In this document: one piece after another, positions 36,285-44,805 of the stretch
Position numbering within the stretch: position 1 is the stretch's first letter
Layout of the letters: each line of letters starts with the position of its first letter
Source of the DNA: Nocardioides sp.
Lineage (GTDB): Bacteria; Actinomycetota; Actinomycetes; Propionibacteriales; Nocardioidaceae
DNA length: 64,000 nucleotides
Reading direction: 5' to 3'
Assembly (NCBI RefSeq): GCF_041913365.1
Contig: NZ_JAYSFM010000004.1
Span: forward strand, 34,348-98,347
Translations under genes and position numbers: made by a program
Notes under the pieces: generated by a model
Told to the model about the DNA's origin: nothing
Seen by the model: only the letters and a program-made list of their open reading frames with translations
Databases searched by the model: none

Positions 36285-37355
36285 GTGGACGTCCTCGACT
36301 CAGTCGTCATCGGTGCCGGGCAGGCGGGCCTCGCCGCGTCGTACTTCCTGCGCCAGCGGGGCATCGACCACGTGGTGCTGGACGCCAACCCCGAGCCCGG
36401 CGGCGCCTGGCAGCACCGGTGGTCCTCCCTCAGCATGGACGACGTGCACGGCGTCGCCGACCTCCCCGGCTCCGCGGCACCGGCGGGGTCGCGGCACGCG
36501 GCCAACCTCGTGGTGCCGGACTACTTCGGCGACTACGAGCGGAGCCAGGGGCTTCCGGTGGTGCGGCCGGTGCGGGTCGAGCGCGTCGACACCGAGGGCG
36601 ACCTGCTGGTCGTGCGTGCCGGCGAGCACGAGTGGCGTACGCGCACGCTCGTCAACGCCACCGGCACCTGGACGCGGCCGTTCGTGCCGTTCTACCCCGG
36701 CATCGAGACGTTCGCGGGGGAGCAGGTGCACACCGCGCACTACCCGGGCGCCGAGCACTTCCGCGGCACGCGCGTGCTCGTGGTGGGCGGCGGGGCGTCC
36801 GCCGTGCAGTTCCTCGGCGAGCTCGCCCCGATCGCCGACACCCTGTGGGTCACCCGGCGGCCGCCGGTCTGGCGCGAGGAGTTCGACGCGTCGGCCGGGC
36901 TGGCCGCGGTGACCGCCGTCGAGGAGCGCGTACGCCGTGGGCTCCCGCCCGCCAGCGTGGTCAGCGTGACCGGGCTCAAGCTGCGGCCGCAGGAGCAGGA
37001 GGCCGCCCGGCTGGGTGCCTACGAGCGGCTGCCGATGTTCTCCCGGATCGAGCCCGACGGGGTCCGCTGGGCCGACGGCAGGTCCGAGAGCGTCGACGTG
37101 ATCCTGTGGGCGACGGGGTTCCGGCCGGCGGTGGACCACCTGGCGCCACTCGGCCTGCGGAGCCCCGAGGGCGGCATCGCCCTCGTGCCGGTGCCCGGCA
37201 ACGTGCAGGGCGCGACCACCGCCGAGCGCGACCCGCGCGTGCAGCTCGTCGGCTACGGGCCCTCCGCGAGCACGATCGGCGCCTCGCGGGCCGGCCGGCA
37301 GGCGGCGCTCGCGGTGTCCCGCCACCTCGCGGCCGAGCCCGCCATCGCGGGCTGA
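36285..37355 (+). CDS. FAD/NAD(P)-dependent flavoprotein monooxygenase-like oxidoreductase
   Basis: VIGAGQAG, NATGTW, HTAHY, VVGGGASA, WATGF. Confidence 0.88.
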   Translation: MDVLDSVVIGAGQAGLAASYFLRQRGIDHVVLDANPEPGGAWQHRWSSLSMDDVHGVADLPGSAAPAGSRHAANLVVPDYFGDYERSQGLPVVRPVRVERVDTEGDLLVVRAGEHEWRTRTLVNATGTWTRPFVPFYPGIETFAGEQVHTAHYPGAEHFRGTRVLVVGGGASAVQFLGELAPIADTLWVTRRPPVWREEFDASAGLAAVTAVEERVRRGLPPASVVSVTGLKLRPQEQEAARLGAYERLPMFSRIEPDGVRWADGRSESVDVILWATGFRPAVDHLAPLGLRSPEGGIALVPVPGNVQGATTAERDPRVQLVGYGPSASTIGASRAGRQAALAVSRHLAAEPAIAG

Positions 37356-37357
37356 TT

Positions 37358-37406
37358 GTCAACCTTCGTCAACCGGCGTCAACCGCCTCCCGGGCGGCCG
37401 CACGGT
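37358..37406 (+). promoter_or_regulatory. Triple GTCAAC box (10-bp period) plus -10-like CACGGT, upstream of lipoprotein A
   Basis: GTCAAC at 37358, 37368, 37378; 17 nt then CACGGT; same layout at 43673. Confidence 0.8.
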
Positions 37407-37456
37407 GGTCCCAACGCCGCACCCGACCGGGGTCGGCAACCTGAAGGGACACGACC

Positions 37457-37717
37457 ATGAACACCAACGGAAACACCATTCGCAAGGGCTTCGCCGCCGT
37501 CACCGCTGCCACCGCGTTCTTCGCCATCACCGCGTGTGGGACCGAGGCCGCCCCGCCGTCACAGGACATCGGGGGCACGCAGCAGCAGCAGAACGAGCCG
37601 CGGTCGCCCAGGACCACCATCCCGAGGACTGACTTCAACGACGAGTTCGGCGACGCCGAGCCGGAGCAGCCGGGGAAGGATCACGATCCCATCGACCGCA
37701 CGAAGGACTGGCACTGA
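37457..37717 (+). CDS. Small lipoprotein A (86 aa), unknown function
   Basis: Signal peptide RKGFAAVTAATAFFAITA-C, GAAGGGA RBS; paralog at 43769. Confidence 0.82.
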   Translation: MNTNGNTIRKGFAAVTAATAFFAITACGTEAAPPSQDIGGTQQQQNEPRSPRTTIPRTDFNDEFGDAEPEQPGKDHDPIDRTKDWH

Positions 37718-37728
37718 GAGACCGGGGG

Positions 37729-37757
37729 CCGGGCGGCGGACGGGGTACGTCGCCCGG
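37729..37757 (+). terminator. Hairpin after lipoprotein A
   Basis: CCGGGCGGCG/CGTCGCCCGG stem (one G-U). Confidence 0.4.
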
Positions 37758-37801
37758 TCCCGTCCCTGCCGGGCCTTTTCTCGGGCCGCCGCTCGATCTC
37801 C

Positions 37802-40699
37802 TCATCCCGCCGCTGTCCCGGCGATCGCCCGGGACAGCGGCACGTGCTCGCGGGCATCAGCTGCAGCCCGCTTGAGCAGCCTCGCCGCCACCGTGCCCTG
37901 CCGCTCGCGCAGGGCGCACTGCGCGGCCCGCCACCTGGCGTACCCCGCGTTGTGTGGGCGGCCGAGCCCGTCCCAGCCGGCCGCGGCTTGCACCCAGGCG
38001 TCGACGGTCGCCCGGTCCTCGCACCTGGCGAGTTCTGCCTCGAAGGCCGCACGGTGGGCGCCGAGGTTGTGGTCACCGGCATGGTCGCTCAGGAGGCCGG
38101 CCTTGTCGGCCAGGGCGCGTAGTGCCTCGCGGTCCCGACCTGCTCGATCGGCACCGGTCTCCGACCCGGCCTGGTGGGCGACGCAACGGGCCGCGACCAC
38201 CAGGGCCGGCGCGACCACTCGGATCGGCGTACCTCCCGCGACGAGGTCGAGGGCGCGGAGCAGGCGGGTCCTCGCCGGCTCCGGCTCATCGGCCCAGCAG
38301 CCGACGGACCCTGCGGTGACCAGGAGTTCGAGGTCCGTCTCGAGGTTGCCGGCCACCGTCGCCCAGATCGCGGCCAGCCGATCCTGGGCAGCCTGGTGGG
38401 CCCCTCGCGCCGAGTCGACTGCCGCGCGCAACCCGTGCAGGTGGAAGCGACCGACGTCGACTGGCTCGCTGCGGCCGATGCCGATCTCGTCCTCCGCCGC
38501 GTCGATCCGTCCAGCGCGCAGGAGCGCGATGGCCAGGTTGATGTGCAGGATGGCCACTTGCGGGTTGGCGATGCCGTGCTCGTCCGCCACCGCGAAGCCC
38601 CCGTGGGCCAGGTCGGCGACAGCGGCGAGTGGACGGCCGTTGATGAGGAGGACGTCTGTGGCGGCGACCGCCTGGCGGAGGTCGCCCAGCGGGTCGAGCG
38701 ACAGGCCGGCGCGCTGCTTCGACCCGGCGAGCATGCGCACTGCCTCGTCCGTCCTGCCTTCCACACCTGCGTGCCAGGCGGCATCCATCACGCAGTCGCG
38801 CAGCACGATGCGGTCACCCAGCGCTTCCGCCGCCGCGAGCTTGGCCTGAAGGGCGTCGCGCGCCTCGTCGAAGCGCCCGGCGGCCTCGAGGAGGTTGACC
38901 CTCCAGTCCAGTGCGTGCAGCGTCCCGGAGCACAGGGGGACGTGCTCGAAGAGCCGGAGGGACTCGTCGATCAGTGCACGAGCGACCGAAGCCCCCTCGC
39001 GCTGGCCGCGGAACTCGGCCGCACGCCACAGGAGCTCGGCCCGGACCGCGTCATCGACGTCGCCGAGGACGTCACCCGCCTGGTCACTCATCGCCGCCGC
39101 TCGATCCCACTGGAGCGAGAACCTCAGGCCGTCCATCGCCTCCAGGTACGCACCGGCACGGGTGATCGGGGGATCGACGTCGGGCGACGCATCGTCGGGC
39201 CACACCTCCAGCGCGCGCAGCCAGTGCTCCGCCTCCCGGCCGCGGTCGTAGCGCCGGGCGGCGGCCCGGGCGGCCGAGATCCGCCACTGGAGCTCGGGTT
39301 CGGGCAGGCCGGCCCGTTGGAAGTGCTCAGCCACCTCCGCCGGCTCGGCGTCGGGAGTCGCAGCCAGAGCCTGGCCAACGGCCCGGTGCACCGCCTGGTC
39401 CTCCCCGGCCACGAGCCGCTGCTGGACTGCCTCGGCGAGCAACGGGTGCTGGAGCTCGATGGCCTCACCGACGCGCCGGAGCAGGAGTCGCTCCCTCAGC
39501 TCGCGCACGCGGCGGGTGAGGGTGTCGGCGTCGACGCCGACCGCCTCCGCAAGGACCGCGGGACGAACGGGCCTGGCTGCGGCCCCCAGGACGCGGAGCA
39601 CCGACCACGACTCCTCGCTGGTGCCGGCGAGGCGCCGGTCGAGCAGGTCGAGCAGGAGGCTCGGCAGGCCGTCGCCCTCGTCCAGCTGGACGGCCAGCTG
39701 TTCGGTGAACAGCGGCTGGCCACGGCTTCGCGCGTGGATCGTGTCGATCGTCTCGACCTCGACCGTGCCGAGGAGGGCGAGCTGGTCGGCGGTCTCGTCG
39801 CGGCTGAGTGGACCGAGCTCCATCACCGAGGCGGCCGGCAGGCGGCGTCGTACCCGGACCAGCCACTCCTCGCTCGCGACTGGTGTGCCCGGGTCGCCAC
39901 GTCGCCAGGTCCCGACCACGGGGACCGAGACGGAGCGACCAAGGAGGTACTCGACGAGGTCCAACGTCATGGGATCGGCCCAGTGGAGGTCCTCGATCTG
40001 GAGTGCGAGGGGCCGGTCCTCGCATAGCGCCTCGACCACGGCTGCCACCGCGGCGAAGAGGAGGCCCTGGTCACCCGTGCGGCCGGGAAGATCGGACGAG
40101 GACTGGATCTCCGGTAGGAGCGCCGACACCGAAGCCGTGACGTACGGCGCACAACGGCCCAGGGCGTCGCGGAGCCAGGCGCCGTCGCGCGCACCATGGA
40201 CTGCCCGCAGCACGTCCGCGACGGGCAGCAACGGGATCACGGTCGACAGCGGCAGGCACTGCCCACCCGCGACGAAAGCCTCGGTCGACGCGGCCGCGGC
40301 CTCGATCAGGGTGGTCTTGCCGATGCCCGCTTCGCCGGTGACGAGGAGGAGGCCGGTGCCGGTCTCGAGGTGGTGTCGTACGACGTCGAGCTCGGCGCGG
40401 CGGCCGGCGATGCGGGGTGCGGTGGGACGGTCGCCGTTGGTGGGGGTGGTGGCGGCGAGCCAGAGGTCGTGGAAGGTGGTGGTGTCTCCGTCCATGGCCT
40501 CGACGAGGAGCTCGAGGGTGCCCCAGGCGGGGAGCGCCGGGCGGGAGAAGGTCTTGGAGACGGTGGTGTGGGAGACGCCGGTCTCGCGTGCGAGGGTGCG
40601 GAGGGAGGGCCAGCCGGCCTGGTGGTGGAGGTCGTGCAGGGCGTCGTTGAGCGTCCGGACGGGTCCGGGCGCGAGGTCGGGGCGGGGGAGGGCGCCCAT
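37802..40699 (-). CDS. HTH-STAND regulator 2 (965 aa): XRE-like HTH, AAA/LAL-type NTPase, helical sensor region, no LuxR domain
   Basis: LRTLARETGVSHTTVSK HTH; GEAGIGKTT Walker A; IEDLHWAD Walker B; TGATG overlap with the upstream paralog. Confidence 0.88.
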   Translation of the reverse strand: MGALPRPDLAPGPVRTLNDALHDLHHQAGWPSLRTLARETGVSHTTVSKTFSRPALPAWGTLELLVEAMDGDTTTFHDLWLAATTPTNGDRPTAPRIAGRRAELDVVRHHLETGTGLLLVTGEAGIGKTTLIEAAAASTEAFVAGGQCLPLSTVIPLLPVADVLRAVHGARDGAWLRDALGRCAPYVTASVSALLPEIQSSSDLPGRTGDQGLLFAAVAAVVEALCEDRPLALQIEDLHWADPMTLDLVEYLLGRSVSVPVVGTWRRGDPGTPVASEEWLVRVRRRLPAASVMELGPLSRDETADQLALLGTVEVETIDTIHARSRGQPLFTEQLAVQLDEGDGLPSLLLDLLDRRLAGTSEESWSVLRVLGAAARPVRPAVLAEAVGVDADTLTRRVRELRERLLLRRVGEAIELQHPLLAEAVQQRLVAGEDQAVHRAVGQALAATPDAEPAEVAEHFQRAGLPEPELQWRISAARAAARRYDRGREAEHWLRALEVWPDDASPDVDPPITRAGAYLEAMDGLRFSLQWDRAAAMSDQAGDVLGDVDDAVRAELLWRAAEFRGQREGASVARALIDESLRLFEHVPLCSGTLHALDWRVNLLEAAGRFDEARDALQAKLAAAEALGDRIVLRDCVMDAAWHAGVEGRTDEAVRMLAGSKQRAGLSLDPLGDLRQAVAATDVLLINGRPLAAVADLAHGGFAVADEHGIANPQVAILHINLAIALLRAGRIDAAEDEIGIGRSEPVDVGRFHLHGLRAAVDSARGAHQAAQDRLAAIWATVAGNLETDLELLVTAGSVGCWADEPEPARTRLLRALDLVAGGTPIRVVAPALVVAARCVAHQAGSETGADRAGRDREALRALADKAGLLSDHAGDHNLGAHRAAFEAELARCEDRATVDAWVQAAAGWDGLGRPHNAGYARWRAAQCALRERQGTVAARLLKRAAADAREHVPLSRAIAGTAAG

Positions 40700-43593
40700 C
40701 ACGCGCCTGCCGCGGTGCGGGTGATGGCTTGGGTGAGCGGGACGTGCTCGCGCGCGTCTGCTGCGGCTCGCTTGAGCAACCGCGCGGCGACCGTGCCGCG
40801 ACCCTCGCGCAGGGCGCACTGCGCCGCGCGCCATCGGGCGTACGCCGCGTCGTGCGGGCGGTCCAGGGCGTCCCATCGCGCGGCCACGTCCGCCCAGAGG
40901 GCTGCAGTGGCGGTGCCGTCGTGCCGGGCCAGCTCGGCGCTCACGGCGCAGCGGTGCGCTGCCACGCACGGATCGTCCGACGGCCCCGCGGAGCCGATGC
41001 CGCACCGCTCGGCCAGCTCCAGCACGACCTCCCGGTAGGGGGAGCGTCCGCGGGTCGGGTCCGCCCCGCTGGCGATGGAGCGAGCGGCCCCCACGACGGC
41101 GCGGAAGAGCATCCGGGGCGACGCGCCACCGTCGAGGTTCACCTGGATGCAGTGGAGGATCTGGTCGATCAGCCGGGTCGGCGTCCCGGTCCAGTAGTCC
41201 ATGTCCACGAGCTCGCCCAGGAAGTCCGACTGGACCGAGTCGGGGGCGCCCACGACGCGTCGTACCTCCTCGAAGCGCGCCGCACCCTCGATCACCCGCC
41301 CGGAGATAACGTCGATCTCGGCGCGGAGGAAGTGCAGCACCCAGTGGTCGTAGTCCGGCGGGTCGTCGGGGCCGACCCCCAGCAGTGCCGTCGCGCGGGC
41401 GACCTGTCCGGCCCGCAGCATCGCCTCCACGACGTTCCCGCGCAGGAACATCACCATCTCGCTGTCCACCCCGAGCGACGTCGCGGCCTCGAACGCGGGC
41501 CGGGCCACGGCCTCGATCTCGTCAACGGTGGCGCAATTCTTGAGGAGCACGTCCGTAGCCATCACCGCCTGCCGGATGTCGCCCAGCGGGTCCGTGCCGT
41601 CCGGGGTCAGCGCCGCCGCCTGTCGCAACAGCTCGAAGCATCCGGCCACGTCCCCGTCGGTGCCGTGCGGACCGGCCAACGTCGTGCGGTGGTACCTCTG
41701 GAGGCGTGCGTCGCCGATCCGGGCGGAGACCTCCGCCGCCTCGCGGACGTGGACGAGCGCCTCGTCGAACCGTCCCAGGTCCTCCAGCAGCAGCCGCTTC
41801 CGGTTGAGCGCACGGACGAGGCCGGGTCCTTCGGGCAGGAGCCGGTGGATCTCGAGCGCCTGGTCGATCAGGGCCAGGCCGACCGACACGCCCTCCTGCT
41901 CGCCGCGGAACGCCGCCGCGCGCAGGAGCACCTCGACGCGCACCTCCTCCGGCGCGGTGGCGAAGCGGTGCTCCGCCTCGGCGCTCAGGGCCGCGCCCCG
42001 GTCCCACTGGAACGACTCGTCGAGGGCATCGATCGCCGCGAGGTAGGCGTCCGACAACCGGGTGGGTGGCTCACCCACGCTGTCGAGCCCGTCGGGCCAG
42101 ATCTCCAGGACCCGCAGCCACTGCTCGGCTTCCTGGCTCCAGTCGAACCGCCTCGCCGACTCCAGCGCGGCCGCGACGCGCCAGGGCAGCTCCTCCCCGG
42201 GTTCGGTGGCTCGCTGCCAGTGCAGGGCGACCTCGGCCGGCTCGGGTGCGGGGCTGTTCGCAAGGGCCCGGGCCAGGCGACGGTGCACCTCGCGACCCTC
42301 GCCCGGCACGAGCCGGCGCCGCGCGGCTTCGGCCAGCAGGGGGTGGTCGAGCACGGCGTTGTCGGCGTCGTCGCCACGGCCGAGCAGGCGCAGGGCGCGC
42401 AGCGACCGCATCGCCTCCGCCAGCTCGTCCACCTCGAGCCCAGCGATGGTCCCCACCACGGTGGCGGGCAGTGGTCGGTCGGCAACGCCGAGCGCGCGGA
42501 CCACGCGCCACGGCGCCGGGTCGAGGCCCTCGAGCCGCGCGTCGAGCAGGTCGGAGAGGGCGTGGGGCAGCCCGGCCTCGGGCAGGTGGGCGGCGAGGTG
42601 CGTCGTGAACAGCGGGTGCCCGCGGCTCCGCGAGAAGACGGCCTCGACGTCGGCCACGGTGCCGAGCCCGACGAGCTGCGCCTCGGTCTCCTCGCGGGTC
42701 AGCGGGCCGAGGCGCACAGTCGAGCTGGCCGGCGCCCGCTCGACGCGCGCACGCCACTGGGTGCTGACGGCCGGCGTGCCGGGGTCGCCGTCCCGCCAGG
42801 TCCCCACGAAGGCGAGGTCCCCGTCCGCGGCCGACAGCGCCATGTGCTCGAGGAGGTCCAGCGTGACGGTGTCCGCCCAGTGCAGGTCCTCGAGCACCAC
42901 CGCCACGCGACCGTCGCGCGCCAGCGCAGCCAGCGCCGCTCCCACGGCGGTGAACAGGTGCTGGCGCCCCAAGGAGTCGTCCGCCGCGGTGGCGGTCCCG
43001 AGCTCGGGCACGAGCCTCGCCAGCTCCACGGCCACGAACGCCGGGCAGGAGGCGAGGGCTGTGGCCAGCCGGCGCCCGTCGTCCTGCGCCAGCGCATCGC
43101 GCAGCGCGTCGCACACCGGCATCAACGGCACGTCGATCGACAGCGGCAGGCACCGACCAGCCAGCACGAGCGCGTCCGGGGACGCCGTCGCCGCCTGCAC
43201 GAGCGTGGTCTTGCCCATCCCCGCCTCGCCGGTCACGAGCAGCAGGCCCCTGCCGTGTGCCAGGTGGCGGCGTACGACGTCGAGCTCGGCGCGGCGGCCG
43301 GCGATGCCCGGACCGGGTGCCGGGCCGCTGCCGTTGGTCGGGGAGGAGGCGGCGAGCCACAGGTCGTGGAAGGTGCCGACGTCGCCGCCCAGCGCTTCGA
43401 CGAGGAGCTCGAGCGTGCCCCACCCCGGCAGCGCGCCCGAGGAGAAGACCTTCGAGACGGTGGTGTGGGAGACCCCCGTCTCCCTGGCGAGCGTGCGCAG
43501 CGAGGGCCAGCCGGCGCGGTGGTGGAGGTCGTGGAGGGCGTCGTTGAGCGTCCGAGCCGGACCCGCGACGTCGGGTCGGGGAAGTGCGCTCAT
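40699..43593 (-). CDS. HTH-STAND regulator 1 (964 aa), paralog of the downstream gene
   Basis: Same HTH; GEAGMGKTT; LEDLHWAD; GGAGGG RBS before ATG43593. Confidence 0.88.
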   Translation of the reverse strand: MSALPRPDVAGPARTLNDALHDLHHRAGWPSLRTLARETGVSHTTVSKVFSSGALPGWGTLELLVEALGGDVGTFHDLWLAASSPTNGSGPAPGPGIAGRRAELDVVRRHLAHGRGLLLVTGEAGMGKTTLVQAATASPDALVLAGRCLPLSIDVPLMPVCDALRDALAQDDGRRLATALASCPAFVAVELARLVPELGTATAADDSLGRQHLFTAVGAALAALARDGRVAVVLEDLHWADTVTLDLLEHMALSAADGDLAFVGTWRDGDPGTPAVSTQWRARVERAPASSTVRLGPLTREETEAQLVGLGTVADVEAVFSRSRGHPLFTTHLAAHLPEAGLPHALSDLLDARLEGLDPAPWRVVRALGVADRPLPATVVGTIAGLEVDELAEAMRSLRALRLLGRGDDADNAVLDHPLLAEAARRRLVPGEGREVHRRLARALANSPAPEPAEVALHWQRATEPGEELPWRVAAALESARRFDWSQEAEQWLRVLEIWPDGLDSVGEPPTRLSDAYLAAIDALDESFQWDRGAALSAEAEHRFATAPEEVRVEVLLRAAAFRGEQEGVSVGLALIDQALEIHRLLPEGPGLVRALNRKRLLLEDLGRFDEALVHVREAAEVSARIGDARLQRYHRTTLAGPHGTDGDVAGCFELLRQAAALTPDGTDPLGDIRQAVMATDVLLKNCATVDEIEAVARPAFEAATSLGVDSEMVMFLRGNVVEAMLRAGQVARATALLGVGPDDPPDYDHWVLHFLRAEIDVISGRVIEGAARFEEVRRVVGAPDSVQSDFLGELVDMDYWTGTPTRLIDQILHCIQVNLDGGASPRMLFRAVVGAARSIASGADPTRGRSPYREVVLELAERCGIGSAGPSDDPCVAAHRCAVSAELARHDGTATAALWADVAARWDALDRPHDAAYARWRAAQCALREGRGTVAARLLKRAAADAREHVPLTQAITRTAAGA

Positions 43594-43672
43594 GGGGCCC
43601 TCCAACCACCCATTCCTCAGGTCGAGGATCCTCCCGCCGGCGACGCTCCGGCAACCCGATTCCGTCTCTGCT

Positions 43673-43721
43673 GTCAACGATCGTCAACACGCGTCAACCC
43701 GCCTCCGCGCGGATCGAGGGT
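43673..43721 (+). promoter_or_regulatory. Triple GTCAAC box (10-bp period) plus -10-like GAGGGT, upstream of lipoprotein B
   Basis: GTCAAC at 43673, 43683, 43693; 17 nt then GAGGGT. Confidence 0.8.
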
Positions 43722-43768
43722 GGTGCCCATCGCCGGACCCGAACCGGCCCACCCGAAGGAGCACTGCC

Positions 43769-44059
43769 ATGTCCACCACATCCATCACCACCGTGCGGCG
43801 AGGCTTCGCAGCCGCAGCTGCCACCGTCGCCCTCGTGACACTCGCTGCGTGTGGCACCGAGGTCGCACCACCGAAGAACGACATCGGAGGAGCGGGCCCC
43901 AAGGAGCCCCTCCCCACCTTCACGCTGGAGGACTGCCTCAACCCCGGGAAGCAGCCCCCCGTCACCACCTGCCCCTACCCGGTCCAGTCCGGTGACGAGA
44001 TCGCCGGCACCCTCAACCGGCTGCAGTACGACGACGAGTACGGACGCCCCGGCCGCTGA
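43769..44059 (+). CDS. Small lipoprotein B (96 aa), paralog of lipoprotein A
   Basis: RRGFAAAAATVALVTLAA-C-GTEVAPPKNDIGG; GAAGGAG RBS; hidden at the end of the track ORF 42062..44059. Confidence 0.85.
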   Translation: MSTTSITTVRRGFAAAAATVALVTLAACGTEVAPPKNDIGGAGPKEPLPTFTLEDCLNPGKQPPVTTCPYPVQSGDEIAGTLNRLQYDDEYGRPGR

Positions 44060-44075
44060 GACCTCCCTCGGGGGT

Positions 44076-44104
44076 GGGCGCGGCGGCATGGAGCCGTCGC
44101 GCCC
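44076..44104 (+). terminator. Hairpin after lipoprotein B
   Basis: 12-bp stem GGGCGCGGCGGC/GCCGTCGCGCCC (one G-U). Confidence 0.5.
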
Positions 44105-44160
44105 GCCGGTCCTGACGCCCGTCACGGGTCAGGATCGCGGCGGCTCGCTAGGCTGACGCC

Positions 44161-44805
44161 ATGGGGGAGATCGAGAACCGCCCGCACGACCCGTCGCAGA
44201 TGCGCATCTCCGACGCCGACCGCCAGCGCGTGGCCGACGTGCTGCGCGATGCGGCCGGCGAGGGGCGGCTTGACCTCGACGAGCTGGAGGAGCGGCTCGA
44301 GCTGACCTTCCAGGCCAAGACCTACGGCGAGCTGGTGCCGATCACCCTGGACCTCCAGGCGACGGGCCCGGTCACCCCGCCGGCGCACGCGCCCGTGCGT
44401 CGGGCGTCCCACCTCCCCGCGGTCGGACACAACTCCTCGACCGCGATCATGAGCGAGTGCAAGCGCCAGGGCGTCTGGGCCGTCCCGGCGCACCACAGCG
44501 CCTTCGCCCTCATGGGCAGCGTGCTGATCGACCTCCGCCAGGCCCAGCTGTCCGGCCACGAGACCCAGATCAACGCCAGCGCGATCATGGGCGAGGTCAA
44601 GGTCATCGTCCCGGCCGACATGCACGTCGTGGTCGACGGGACGCCGATCATGGGCGAGTACAACCAGGCCAAGGACAAGGTCCCGGCCGAGCTGCGCCCG
44701 GACTCGCCGACCGTGCGGATCCGCGGCATGGCCCTCATGGGATCGGTGACGGTCCAGCGCCAGCCCCCGCCCGGCACGCCGAAGAAGATCATCGGCACCT
44801 ACTGA
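44161..44805 (+). CDS. DUF1707 (SHOCT-like) plus LiaF/DUF2154-like domain protein
   Basis: MRISDADRQRVADVLRDAAGEGRLDLDELEERLE; MGSVLIDLR; leaderless TAGGCT-6nt-ATG. Confidence 0.88.
   Translation: MGEIENRPHDPSQMRISDADRQRVADVLRDAAGEGRLDLDELEERLELTFQAKTYGELVPITLDLQATGPVTPPAHAPVRRASHLPAVGHNSSTAIMSECKRQGVWAVPAHHSAFALMGSVLIDLRQAQLSGHETQINASAIMGEVKVIVPADMHVVVDGTPIMGEYNQAKDKVPAELRPDSPTVRIRGMALMGSVTVQRQPPPGTPKKIIGTY

Follow-up and report, generated by a model that had tools for sequence, protein, structure and literature searches.

The stretch of DNA analysed in this work (hereafter the window) comprises 64,000 nucleotides (nt) of contig NZ_JAYSFM010000004.1 from a Nocardioides sp., whose genome consists of 4.64 Mb in 25 contigs with a GC content of 73%. 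The window contains two tandem genes for large ATPases of the STAND class, termed here STAND1 and STAND2, whose products both combine an XRE-like helix-turn-helix (HTH), an AAA_16 nucleotide-binding oligomerisation domain (NOD) and a helical-repeat sensor without a LuxR domain. These genes are flanked by lipoA on one side and by lipoB on the other, each coding for a small lipoprotein and each preceded by the same triple repeat of the hexamer GTCAAC (box A and box B, respectively; Table 1). The locus represents a single copy of an accessory cassette that is conserved in Nocardioides and made up of STAND genes, boxes and genes for small exported proteins. A first-pass annotation of the window had described its layout, with two ATPases of ~965 amino acids (aa) whose genes overlap at a TGATG, two paralogous lipoproteins with homologous upstream boxes, and a hairpin after each lipoprotein gene, and all of these features were recovered in our analyses. 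The TGA stop codon of STAND1 overlaps the ATG of STAND2, while the lipoA and lipoB products share 48% identity (E = 4e-9) over their first 46 residues, which comprise the signal peptide and a CGTE.APP..DIGG tether. Of the two hairpins only that of lipoB clearly exceeds shuffled sequence (z = -3.2); that of lipoA (z = -0.9) is not exceptional at this GC content, and no clear T-tract is present at either. A mechanically called open reading frame at 43851-44156 was considered as lipoB and rejected as an off-frame artefact.

Table 1. Positions of the genes and sequence features of the cassette and of its immediate surroundings, numbered from the first nucleotide of the window.
Feature	Position	Strand	Characteristics
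FAD/pyridine-nucleotide oxidoreductase gene	36285-37355	+	just 5' of box A
Consensus-scan signal at box A	37355-37382	-	TTGACG-16-GACAAT, pointing away from lipoA
Box A	37358-37383	+	GTCAAC-N4-GTCAAC-N4-GTCAAC; at ~-55, -45 and -35 of the lipoA promoter
Predicted lipoA -10	37401-37406	+	CACGGT, 17 nt past the last box; putative transcription start near 37413
Predicted lipoA 5' untranslated region	37407-37456		short inverted repeat
lipoA	37457-37717	+	86 aa; type-A small lipoprotein; lipobox ITAC, tether CGTEAAPPSQDIGG, motif RTDFNDEFG
Hairpin 3' of lipoA	about 37725-37761	+	14-bp stem, between the convergent lipoA and STAND2
STAND2	37802-40699	-	965 aa
STAND1/STAND2 overlap	40701-40697	-	TGATG, within the junction GTGATGG
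STAND1	40699-43593	-	964 aa
Box B	43673-43698	+	GTCAAC-N4-GTCAAC-N4-GTCAAC; between the divergent STAND1 and lipoB, with 80 nt to the STAND1 start codon
Predicted lipoB -10	43716-43721	+	GAGGGT, 17 nt past the last box; putative transcription start near 43728
Predicted lipoB 5' untranslated region	43722-43768		short inverted repeat
lipoB	43769-44059	+	96 aa; type-B small lipoprotein; lipobox LAAC, tether CGTEVAPPKNDIGG, Cys loop DCL..TCPYPVQSGD, C-terminal NRLQYDDEYGRPGR
Hairpin 3' of lipoB	44073-44107	+	15-bp perfect stem
DUF1707 (SHOCT-like) gene with LiaF-like C-terminal domain	44161-44805	+	directly 3' of lipoB

The triple-box pattern gives 0 matches in shuffled versions of the window, and box A and box B are the only two triple-GTCAAC matches in the whole genome. 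We have also searched 401 genomes of the same genus with a relaxed form of the pattern (GTCMRB-N4-GTCARS-N4-GTCAAC), which occurs 44 times in 35 of these genomes (about 9%), whereas the reversed pattern, used as a control, occurs only twice. A chance repeat is ruled out by these three results. A STAND of the same family, recognised by its N- or C-terminal part, is encoded within 1.5 kb of the box in 27 of the 29 loci that were examined over 3 kb (one of the two remaining loci being an obvious chance match), and 39 of the 40 boxes that have a full promoter context adjoin at least one family STAND in 14-kb loci. The first-pass annotation had proposed that the window holds a self-contained module, and had named absence of linkage in other genomes as a finding that would speak against it; the tight linkage of STAND, box and small exported-protein genes observed here establishes the module as real and conserved, and it is indeed self-contained.

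The composition of the cassette varies among the relatives. Related cassettes contain one, two or three tandem STAND genes (three in Nocardioides ganghwensis), often with overlapping stop and start codons, together with one or two small genes. Each small gene either diverges from the 5' end of a STAND gene, whose start then lies 64-95 nt from the box, or converges upon a STAND 3' end. The layout seen in the window, in which STAND genes lie between two box-preceded small genes, recurs with three STANDs in one genome (G278) and with a single STAND in two others (G554 and G555). Hence, the fixed circuit of two receptors and two outputs that had been envisaged for this locus is not a general property of the cassette. 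The cassette is accessory and patchy in its distribution, and searches at the protein level have identified the STAND family in 10 genomes out of an even sample of 401 from the Nocardioidaceae. No family member was found on the plasmids of PLSDB. The genes flanking the cassette are metabolic or envelope genes and differ between genomes, and across the loci examined no protease, Opp/peptide importer, modification enzyme or other regulator gene is conserved within it.

Alignment of 40 related promoters on their boxes has revealed a uniform architecture. A hexamer of the form nAnnnT is located exactly 17 nt past the last GTCAAC in all 40 promoters. Its second base (A2) and its sixth (T6) are invariant, and this pair would be expected at only roughly 2% of sites in a background of 73% GC. 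The hexamer differs with the type of the small protein encoded downstream (types A to C, described below), viz. CACGGT, CACCGT or CACTGT for type A, GAGGGT for type B (also in the orthologous lipoB promoters of G554 and G555), and AACTCT or GACTCT for type C. The ATG of the small gene follows 70-83 nt past the box and is itself preceded by a Shine-Dalgarno sequence. The proximal box occupies the -35 position and the other two boxes lie one and two helical turns upstream; besides the box, no -35-like hexamer is present in the aligned promoters, and the -10 element is weak, keeping only A2 and T6. Since RNA polymerase would need to be recruited to a promoter with a weak -10 and no usable -35, this geometry has the appearance of a class-II promoter, one that depends on an activator. 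The afsS promoter, which depends on AfsR, likewise combines a suboptimal -10 (CACTGT) and a poor -35 with direct repeats that overlap the -35 (PMC10936776).

The location of the proximal box exactly at -35, and that of box B in a short divergent region shared with the STAND operon, would also fit an arrangement in which the STANDs are repressors or purely autoregulatory, so that the boxes are operators occluding the -35 and the small genes are expressed upon release of the STANDs. We regard such repression as improbable, because the lack of a -35-like hexamer besides the box, together with a weak -10, characterises promoters that depend on an activator, as that of afsS does (PMC10936776), and because the characterised STAND transcription factors (viz. 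MalT, GutR, and AfsR) are all activators (established knowledge and PMC10936776).

The same intergenic regions have other features of their own. Short inverted repeats are present just upstream of the Shine-Dalgarno sequence in the predicted 5' untranslated regions of the small genes, examples being ccgacc-gg-ggtcgg in lipoA and ccgatccg-aga-gcggatcgg in the related locus L162. The repeat recurs at the same position across the different types with differing sequences, and the copies in the window (z about -1.1) do not fold better than shuffled sequence. When read on the opposite strand the boxes are GTTGAC, which resembles a -35 element. A consensus scan flags a signal of this kind on the minus strand of box A, where no gene lies in the direction to which it points, while the distal box of box B reads TTGACA towards STAND1, with no -10 found at 16-19 nt.

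The STAND1 and STAND2 proteins share 48% identity over their full length, rising to ~85-90% in the first 90 and the last 60 residues and being much lower in residues 540-900. Both contain an AAA_16 domain as identified by Pfam (E = 1e-18 and 1e-20) with intact Walker A and Walker B motifs (GEAGxGKTT and EDLHWAD). Their N-terminal matches to HTH families of Pfam (viz. HTH_3, HTH_36, and HTH_50) are weak and sub-threshold, and some homologs carry a precomputed match to HTH_31. An AlphaFold2 model of STAND1, built on an alignment of 82 family sequences, is of high confidence, with a predicted local distance difference test score (pLDDT) of 92.5 and a predicted template modelling score (pTM) of 0.78. 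It consists of a five-helix N-terminal HTH (residues 12-83), a disordered linker, an alpha/beta nucleoside triphosphatase (NTPase), helical and winged-helix parts, and an all-helical repeat solenoid extending from ~430 to 963. The top matches of this model in Foldseek are the crystal structure of a STAND-TPR protein (6mfv), Avs3, CED-4, MalT, Apaf-1 and the plant NLR protein RPP1, while no sequence-level relatives of the STANDs were found in the PDB. The AAA_16 domain, Walker motifs, helical and winged-helix domains, repeat sensor and fold matches are together those of a STAND NTPase. No LuxR/GerE domain was detected by Pfam in either protein, and the first-pass description of an XRE-like HTH joined to AAA_16 without LuxR is borne out.

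The nearest relatives of these proteins outside the Nocardioidaceae are found in Streptomyces, Actinoplanes, Nonomuraea and other genera and are LuxR-tailed LAL proteins, to which the STANDs can be aligned by tblastn with 26-35% identity from residue ~95 to ~950. The STANDs end in ...EHVPLTQAITRTAAGA, at a point from which the Streptomyces relatives run on into LTPRERDVLRLV...SPKTASVHVSNIL, the LuxR HTH. Because the body of the LAL proteins can be aligned, the STAND family stops just before their LuxR domain, and an HTH of ~90 aa is present at the opposite, N-terminal end, the STANDs are derivatives of LAL proteins in which the DNA-binding domain has been relocated and replaced. Across the family, conservation is highest in the HTH and lowest in the sensor, and rises again to a high level in the last 65 residues.

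A fold that matches Avs3 and Avs5, a variable sensor, tandem paralogs and a patchy, accessory distribution are also what could be expected of antiviral (Avs-like) STAND defence, where a phage protein would be sensed and either the HTH or the small proteins would then serve as effectors. Such a role is, in our view, highly improbable. No defence model of PADLOC matches the module, no nuclease, protease, SIR2 or TIR effector domain was identified in the STANDs by Pfam, and the proteins cluster with the LAL transcription factors; furthermore, the conserved promoter architecture points to gene regulation, and no consistent neighbourhood of defence genes surrounds the cassette. Pfam also gives no match to Trans_reg_C or BTAD in the STANDs, and NCBIfam contains no family that the module proteins match above its cut-off.

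The linkage described above and the sequences of the HTH and of the boxes suggest that the STANDs bind to the boxes. The core of the recognition helix, SHTTV, is near-invariant in the family (SHTTVS in most members) and common to all of the STANDs, as the same box is common to all of the promoters. The proximal GTCAAC is present in every promoter counted, although this is not independent evidence as the hexamer was required by the scan. Whether Cys or Val stands directly ahead of this helix is correlated with the variant of the distal box (GTCC.. or GTCA..), with counts of 5/10 versus 2/29 (Fisher p = 0.007, uncorrected for phylogeny). As the same HTH and the same boxes are found for all paralogs in a genome, each of the two promoters is probably controlled by both STANDs of the window, perhaps joined in hetero-oligomers, and not by one STAND apiece in two separate channels as could be supposed from the first-pass annotation.

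We consider it likely, from the promoter geometry and by analogy with characterised STAND regulators, that these proteins are cue- and ATP-gated activators that assemble into oligomers on the three boxes, all of them in phase, and bring RNA polymerase to the promoters of the small-protein genes. As in MalT, GutR and AfsR (PMC10936776), the variable helical-repeat domain would sense a cue, and ATP binding and oligomerisation would be made possible. The STAND oligomer would then set its HTH domains on the three GTCAAC boxes, which lie on one face of the DNA at ~-55, -45 and -35, and class-II recruitment of RNA polymerase to the weak promoters would result in transcription of lipoA and lipoB. The variable sensors would in this manner supply different inputs to shared promoters, and box B, owing to its closeness to the STAND1 start codon, may also feed back on the STAND operon. 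The anatomy, conservation and linkage of the cassette, its promoter geometry and the fold of the STANDs are shown by our analyses, while we infer that the STANDs bind DNA and that they activate and do not repress, as well as what kind of cue they sense and what the small proteins do. Several observations weigh against this mechanism. Family members that have no recognisable box or small gene nearby are present in G015, G375 and G394, at one locus of G409, and in a metagenome-assembled genome (L034), while one locus (L156; G589:C7) has a box and a small lipoprotein gene but no STAND within 7 kb. The covariation tests ignore shared ancestry, and a protein bound at -35 could repress instead of activating.

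A second locus similar to L156, viz. L159 (G010:C19), likewise has a small exported-protein gene behind a good box and its -10 element, with no family STAND within the region that was fetched, and it is possible that both of these loci are orphan targets regulated in trans.

The small genes possess signal peptides, Shine-Dalgarno sequences and conserved amino-acid motifs, by which they are shown to be coding genes and not just promoter-proximal transcripts. Their products are mosaics of a limited set of modules. Export is specified either by a lipoprotein signal with the tether CG[TAD]E.APP.[QN]D[IV] or by a Sec signal peptide, and the other modules include a Cys loop of the form [DE]RPCF...W N..GP.PTC and a second Cys loop, DC[LIM]D...TCPYP[VI].SGD. 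Common to the small proteins of the cassettes is the motif R-x-x-[FY]-x-D-E-[YF]-G, usually near the C-terminus. In its fuller form, [NS]R.[DEQ][FY].[DE][DEN][YF][GA], it is present once or twice and usually only a few residues from the C-terminus, and in many type-C proteins a C-terminal R..D[FY]MP takes its place. The lipoA protein is of type A (tether and motif) and the lipoB protein of type B (in which the second Cys loop is added to the tether and the motif is C-terminal), the later motif of lipoB, RLQYDDEYG, being the counterpart of RTDFNDEFG in lipoA. A six-frame translation of the whole genome contains the motif at two places only, one in lipoA and the other in lipoB. The small proteins are lineage-restricted. 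Only 8 close homologs of lipoA were identified among 5.8 billion clustered proteins, and only 13 cluster representatives matching lipoB among 1.84 billion; none of these proteins is named, and no known family was assigned to the small proteins by Pfam, NCBIfam or PADLOC. The small proteins may be signal precursors or envelope or extracellular effectors.

Two metagenomic relatives of lipoB (P0137 and P0138) contain both a type-C loop (RPCFIVQPRWN..GPAPTC) and a type-B loop (DCLD..TCPYPIKSGD) in a single secreted protein of 129-144 aa, and the joint presence of both Cys loops indicates that the small proteins evolve by module shuffling.

The activator mechanism can be extended to peptide autoinduction, in which a fragment containing the motif, often C-terminal in an exported pro-peptide, would be released, re-enter the cell and bind to the STAND sensor, creating a quorum-sensing or alarm loop that resembles RRNPP systems in its working but employs an NLR-type receptor. 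The receptor gene adjoins the gene for a small secreted protein whose promoter it apparently controls, and the motif, which lies at or near the C-terminus in most of the types, is common to otherwise unrelated Sec and lipoprotein modules and is sometimes duplicated within one precursor. The distances between sensors also track those between the small proteins when the NOD is controlled for (partial Mantel r = 0.21, p = 0.001; reverse r = -0.06), although this signal may only reflect a faster clock of the sensor. We nevertheless judge autoinduction to be a tentative and rather unlikely extension, as the cassette has no conserved protease to process the peptide or importer to return it, the motif of lipoA is internal and not C-terminal, and orthologs of lipoA and lipoB flank a STAND of another clade (~40% identical) in G554 and G555, which argues against a tight pairing of receptor and ligand. 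In addition, our literature searches found no such peptide quorum-sensing system for Actinobacteria. A strict one-to-one co-phylogeny of STAND clades and small-protein types was considered and is not seen, the backbone of the tree being without resolution and the types being mixed.

Other observations concern the surroundings of the cassette. An ortholog of the DUF1707 gene located downstream of lipoB (54% identity) also adjoins the STAND ortholog in G015, where lipoB and its box are absent, and the FAD oxidoreductase gene is also a neighbour of the cassette in G002 (locus L005). In relatives without the cassette these two genes do not adjoin each other, and no clean empty site or insertion boundary was found by this comparison. 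Locus L005 (G002:C16:27000-41000), from a same-genus genome estimated to be 71% complete, contains a tandem duplication of the unit formed by a small lipoprotein gene and a STAND gene diverging from a box. Both STAND copies and one copy of the lipoprotein gene in it are broken by frameshifts or TGA stop codons, which are either assembly errors or marks of a decaying cassette.

To our knowledge, the STAND transcription factors that have been characterised are of only three kinds, viz. MalT/LAL, GutR, and AfsR. The cassette would add a fourth architecture, in which an XRE-like HTH is placed upon the body of a LAL protein, and its regulon is unusually clear: the cis-element is sharply defined, and the dedicated targets number just one or two within a unit of 6.7 kb. 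It appears to represent an undescribed regulatory, and possibly signalling, module. Literature searches identified no description of the XRE-STAND family or its targets, and the earlier statement that the locus matches no named system agrees with our finding of no named family, defence model or published account. The compactness of the cassette allows direct study of how a STAND oligomer reads helically phased boxes, of whether paralogs form hetero-oligomers like paired NLRs, and of the cues to which fast-evolving sensors respond. If the exported proteins are indeed signals, they would represent a communication system of a new class among bacteria, and this in a phylum for which hardly any peptide signalling is known.

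In their domains the STANDs differ from LAL proteins in having no LuxR domain, from SARP regulators in having no OmpR-type or BTAD domain, from RRNPP receptors in having an inserted NTPase, and from Avs proteins in having no effector. The RRNPP systems (viz. Rap, Rgg, NprR, PlcR, PrgX, and AimR) resemble the cassette in that a receptor with an XRE-type HTH and a helical-repeat sensor has its gene beside that for a small secreted protein, which the receptor regulates (in the cassette, putatively) through a promoter box (PMC10075063 for the definition of RRNPP). An adjacent gene for a small secreted pro-peptide, as in RRNPP systems, is also found here, as shown by the 39 of 40 boxes with small exported-protein genes that adjoin a STAND. 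However, RRNPP receptors are of ~300-450 aa with the HTH placed directly on a TPR sensor and no NTPase, whereas in STAND1 (964 aa) a STAND ATPase of ~400 aa is located between the HTH and the sensor, making the receptor about three times larger. The hosts also differ, being Firmicutes for RRNPP and Actinobacteria here, and the precursors in the present case are lipoproteins or Sec proteins of 80-100 aa with Cys-loop modules. In its most far-reaching form, which we hold to be a shade more doubtful even than autoinduction by itself, the cassette would be a peptide-based system of cell-cell signalling or alarm, the first with an intracellular receptor of the NLR/STAND type and the first of RRNPP-like kind in Actinobacteria, in which several sensor paralogs of one DNA specificity would either combine cues from within the cell or detect the R-x-D-F-x-D-E-Y-G peptide after its re-import, and would then switch on the exported precursors of this peptide.

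GutR, the glucitol activator of Bacillus subtilis, is activated by its inducer and then by ATP (as cited in PMC10936776). Compared by domain order alone, it resembles the STANDs of the cassette in having an N-terminal HTH, a STAND NTPase and a TPR-like sensor. It differs from them in that it controls a sugar catabolic operon in Firmicutes and has no known triple-box promoter, whereas the targets here are small exported proteins.

The LAL/MalT regulators are the closest relatives in sequence, as the region that can be aligned takes in the AAA_16 NTPase together with the helical sensor and reaches to the final conserved helices at the C-terminus, and MalT is also among the top fold matches of the STAND1 model. 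MalT binds arrays of repeated boxes after the binding of its inducer and ATP. The differences lie at the two ends of the protein, where the C-terminal LuxR/GerE HTH that defines the LAL group is absent from the cassette STANDs and the ~90-aa HTH has been added.

The likeness to AfsR-afsS of Streptomyces coelicolor is one of overall design. AfsR is a protein of ~1000 aa with an N-terminal DNA-binding domain, a NOD and a helical-repeat sensor; it binds to direct repeats that extend over the -35 of a promoter whose -10 is weak, the afsS sequence CACTGT resembling the CAC(G/C/T)GT of the cassette (CACGGT in lipoA), and its target is the neighbouring gene for a small protein with internal repeats (PMC10936776). 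The two systems differ in that AfsR has a SARP OmpR-type domain and BTAD in place of the XRE-like HTH, in that the NTPase of the cassette is of the AAA_16/LAL type, and in that the afsS product is cytoplasmic whereas the targets of the cassette are exported. The spacing is also different, with two 11-bp repeats, the last of them 8 bp from the -10, in the former and three repeats at a 10-bp period, the last 17 bp from the -10, in the latter. Judged by analogy, the cassette would thus seem to work most like AfsR-afsS while having descended from the LAL regulators.

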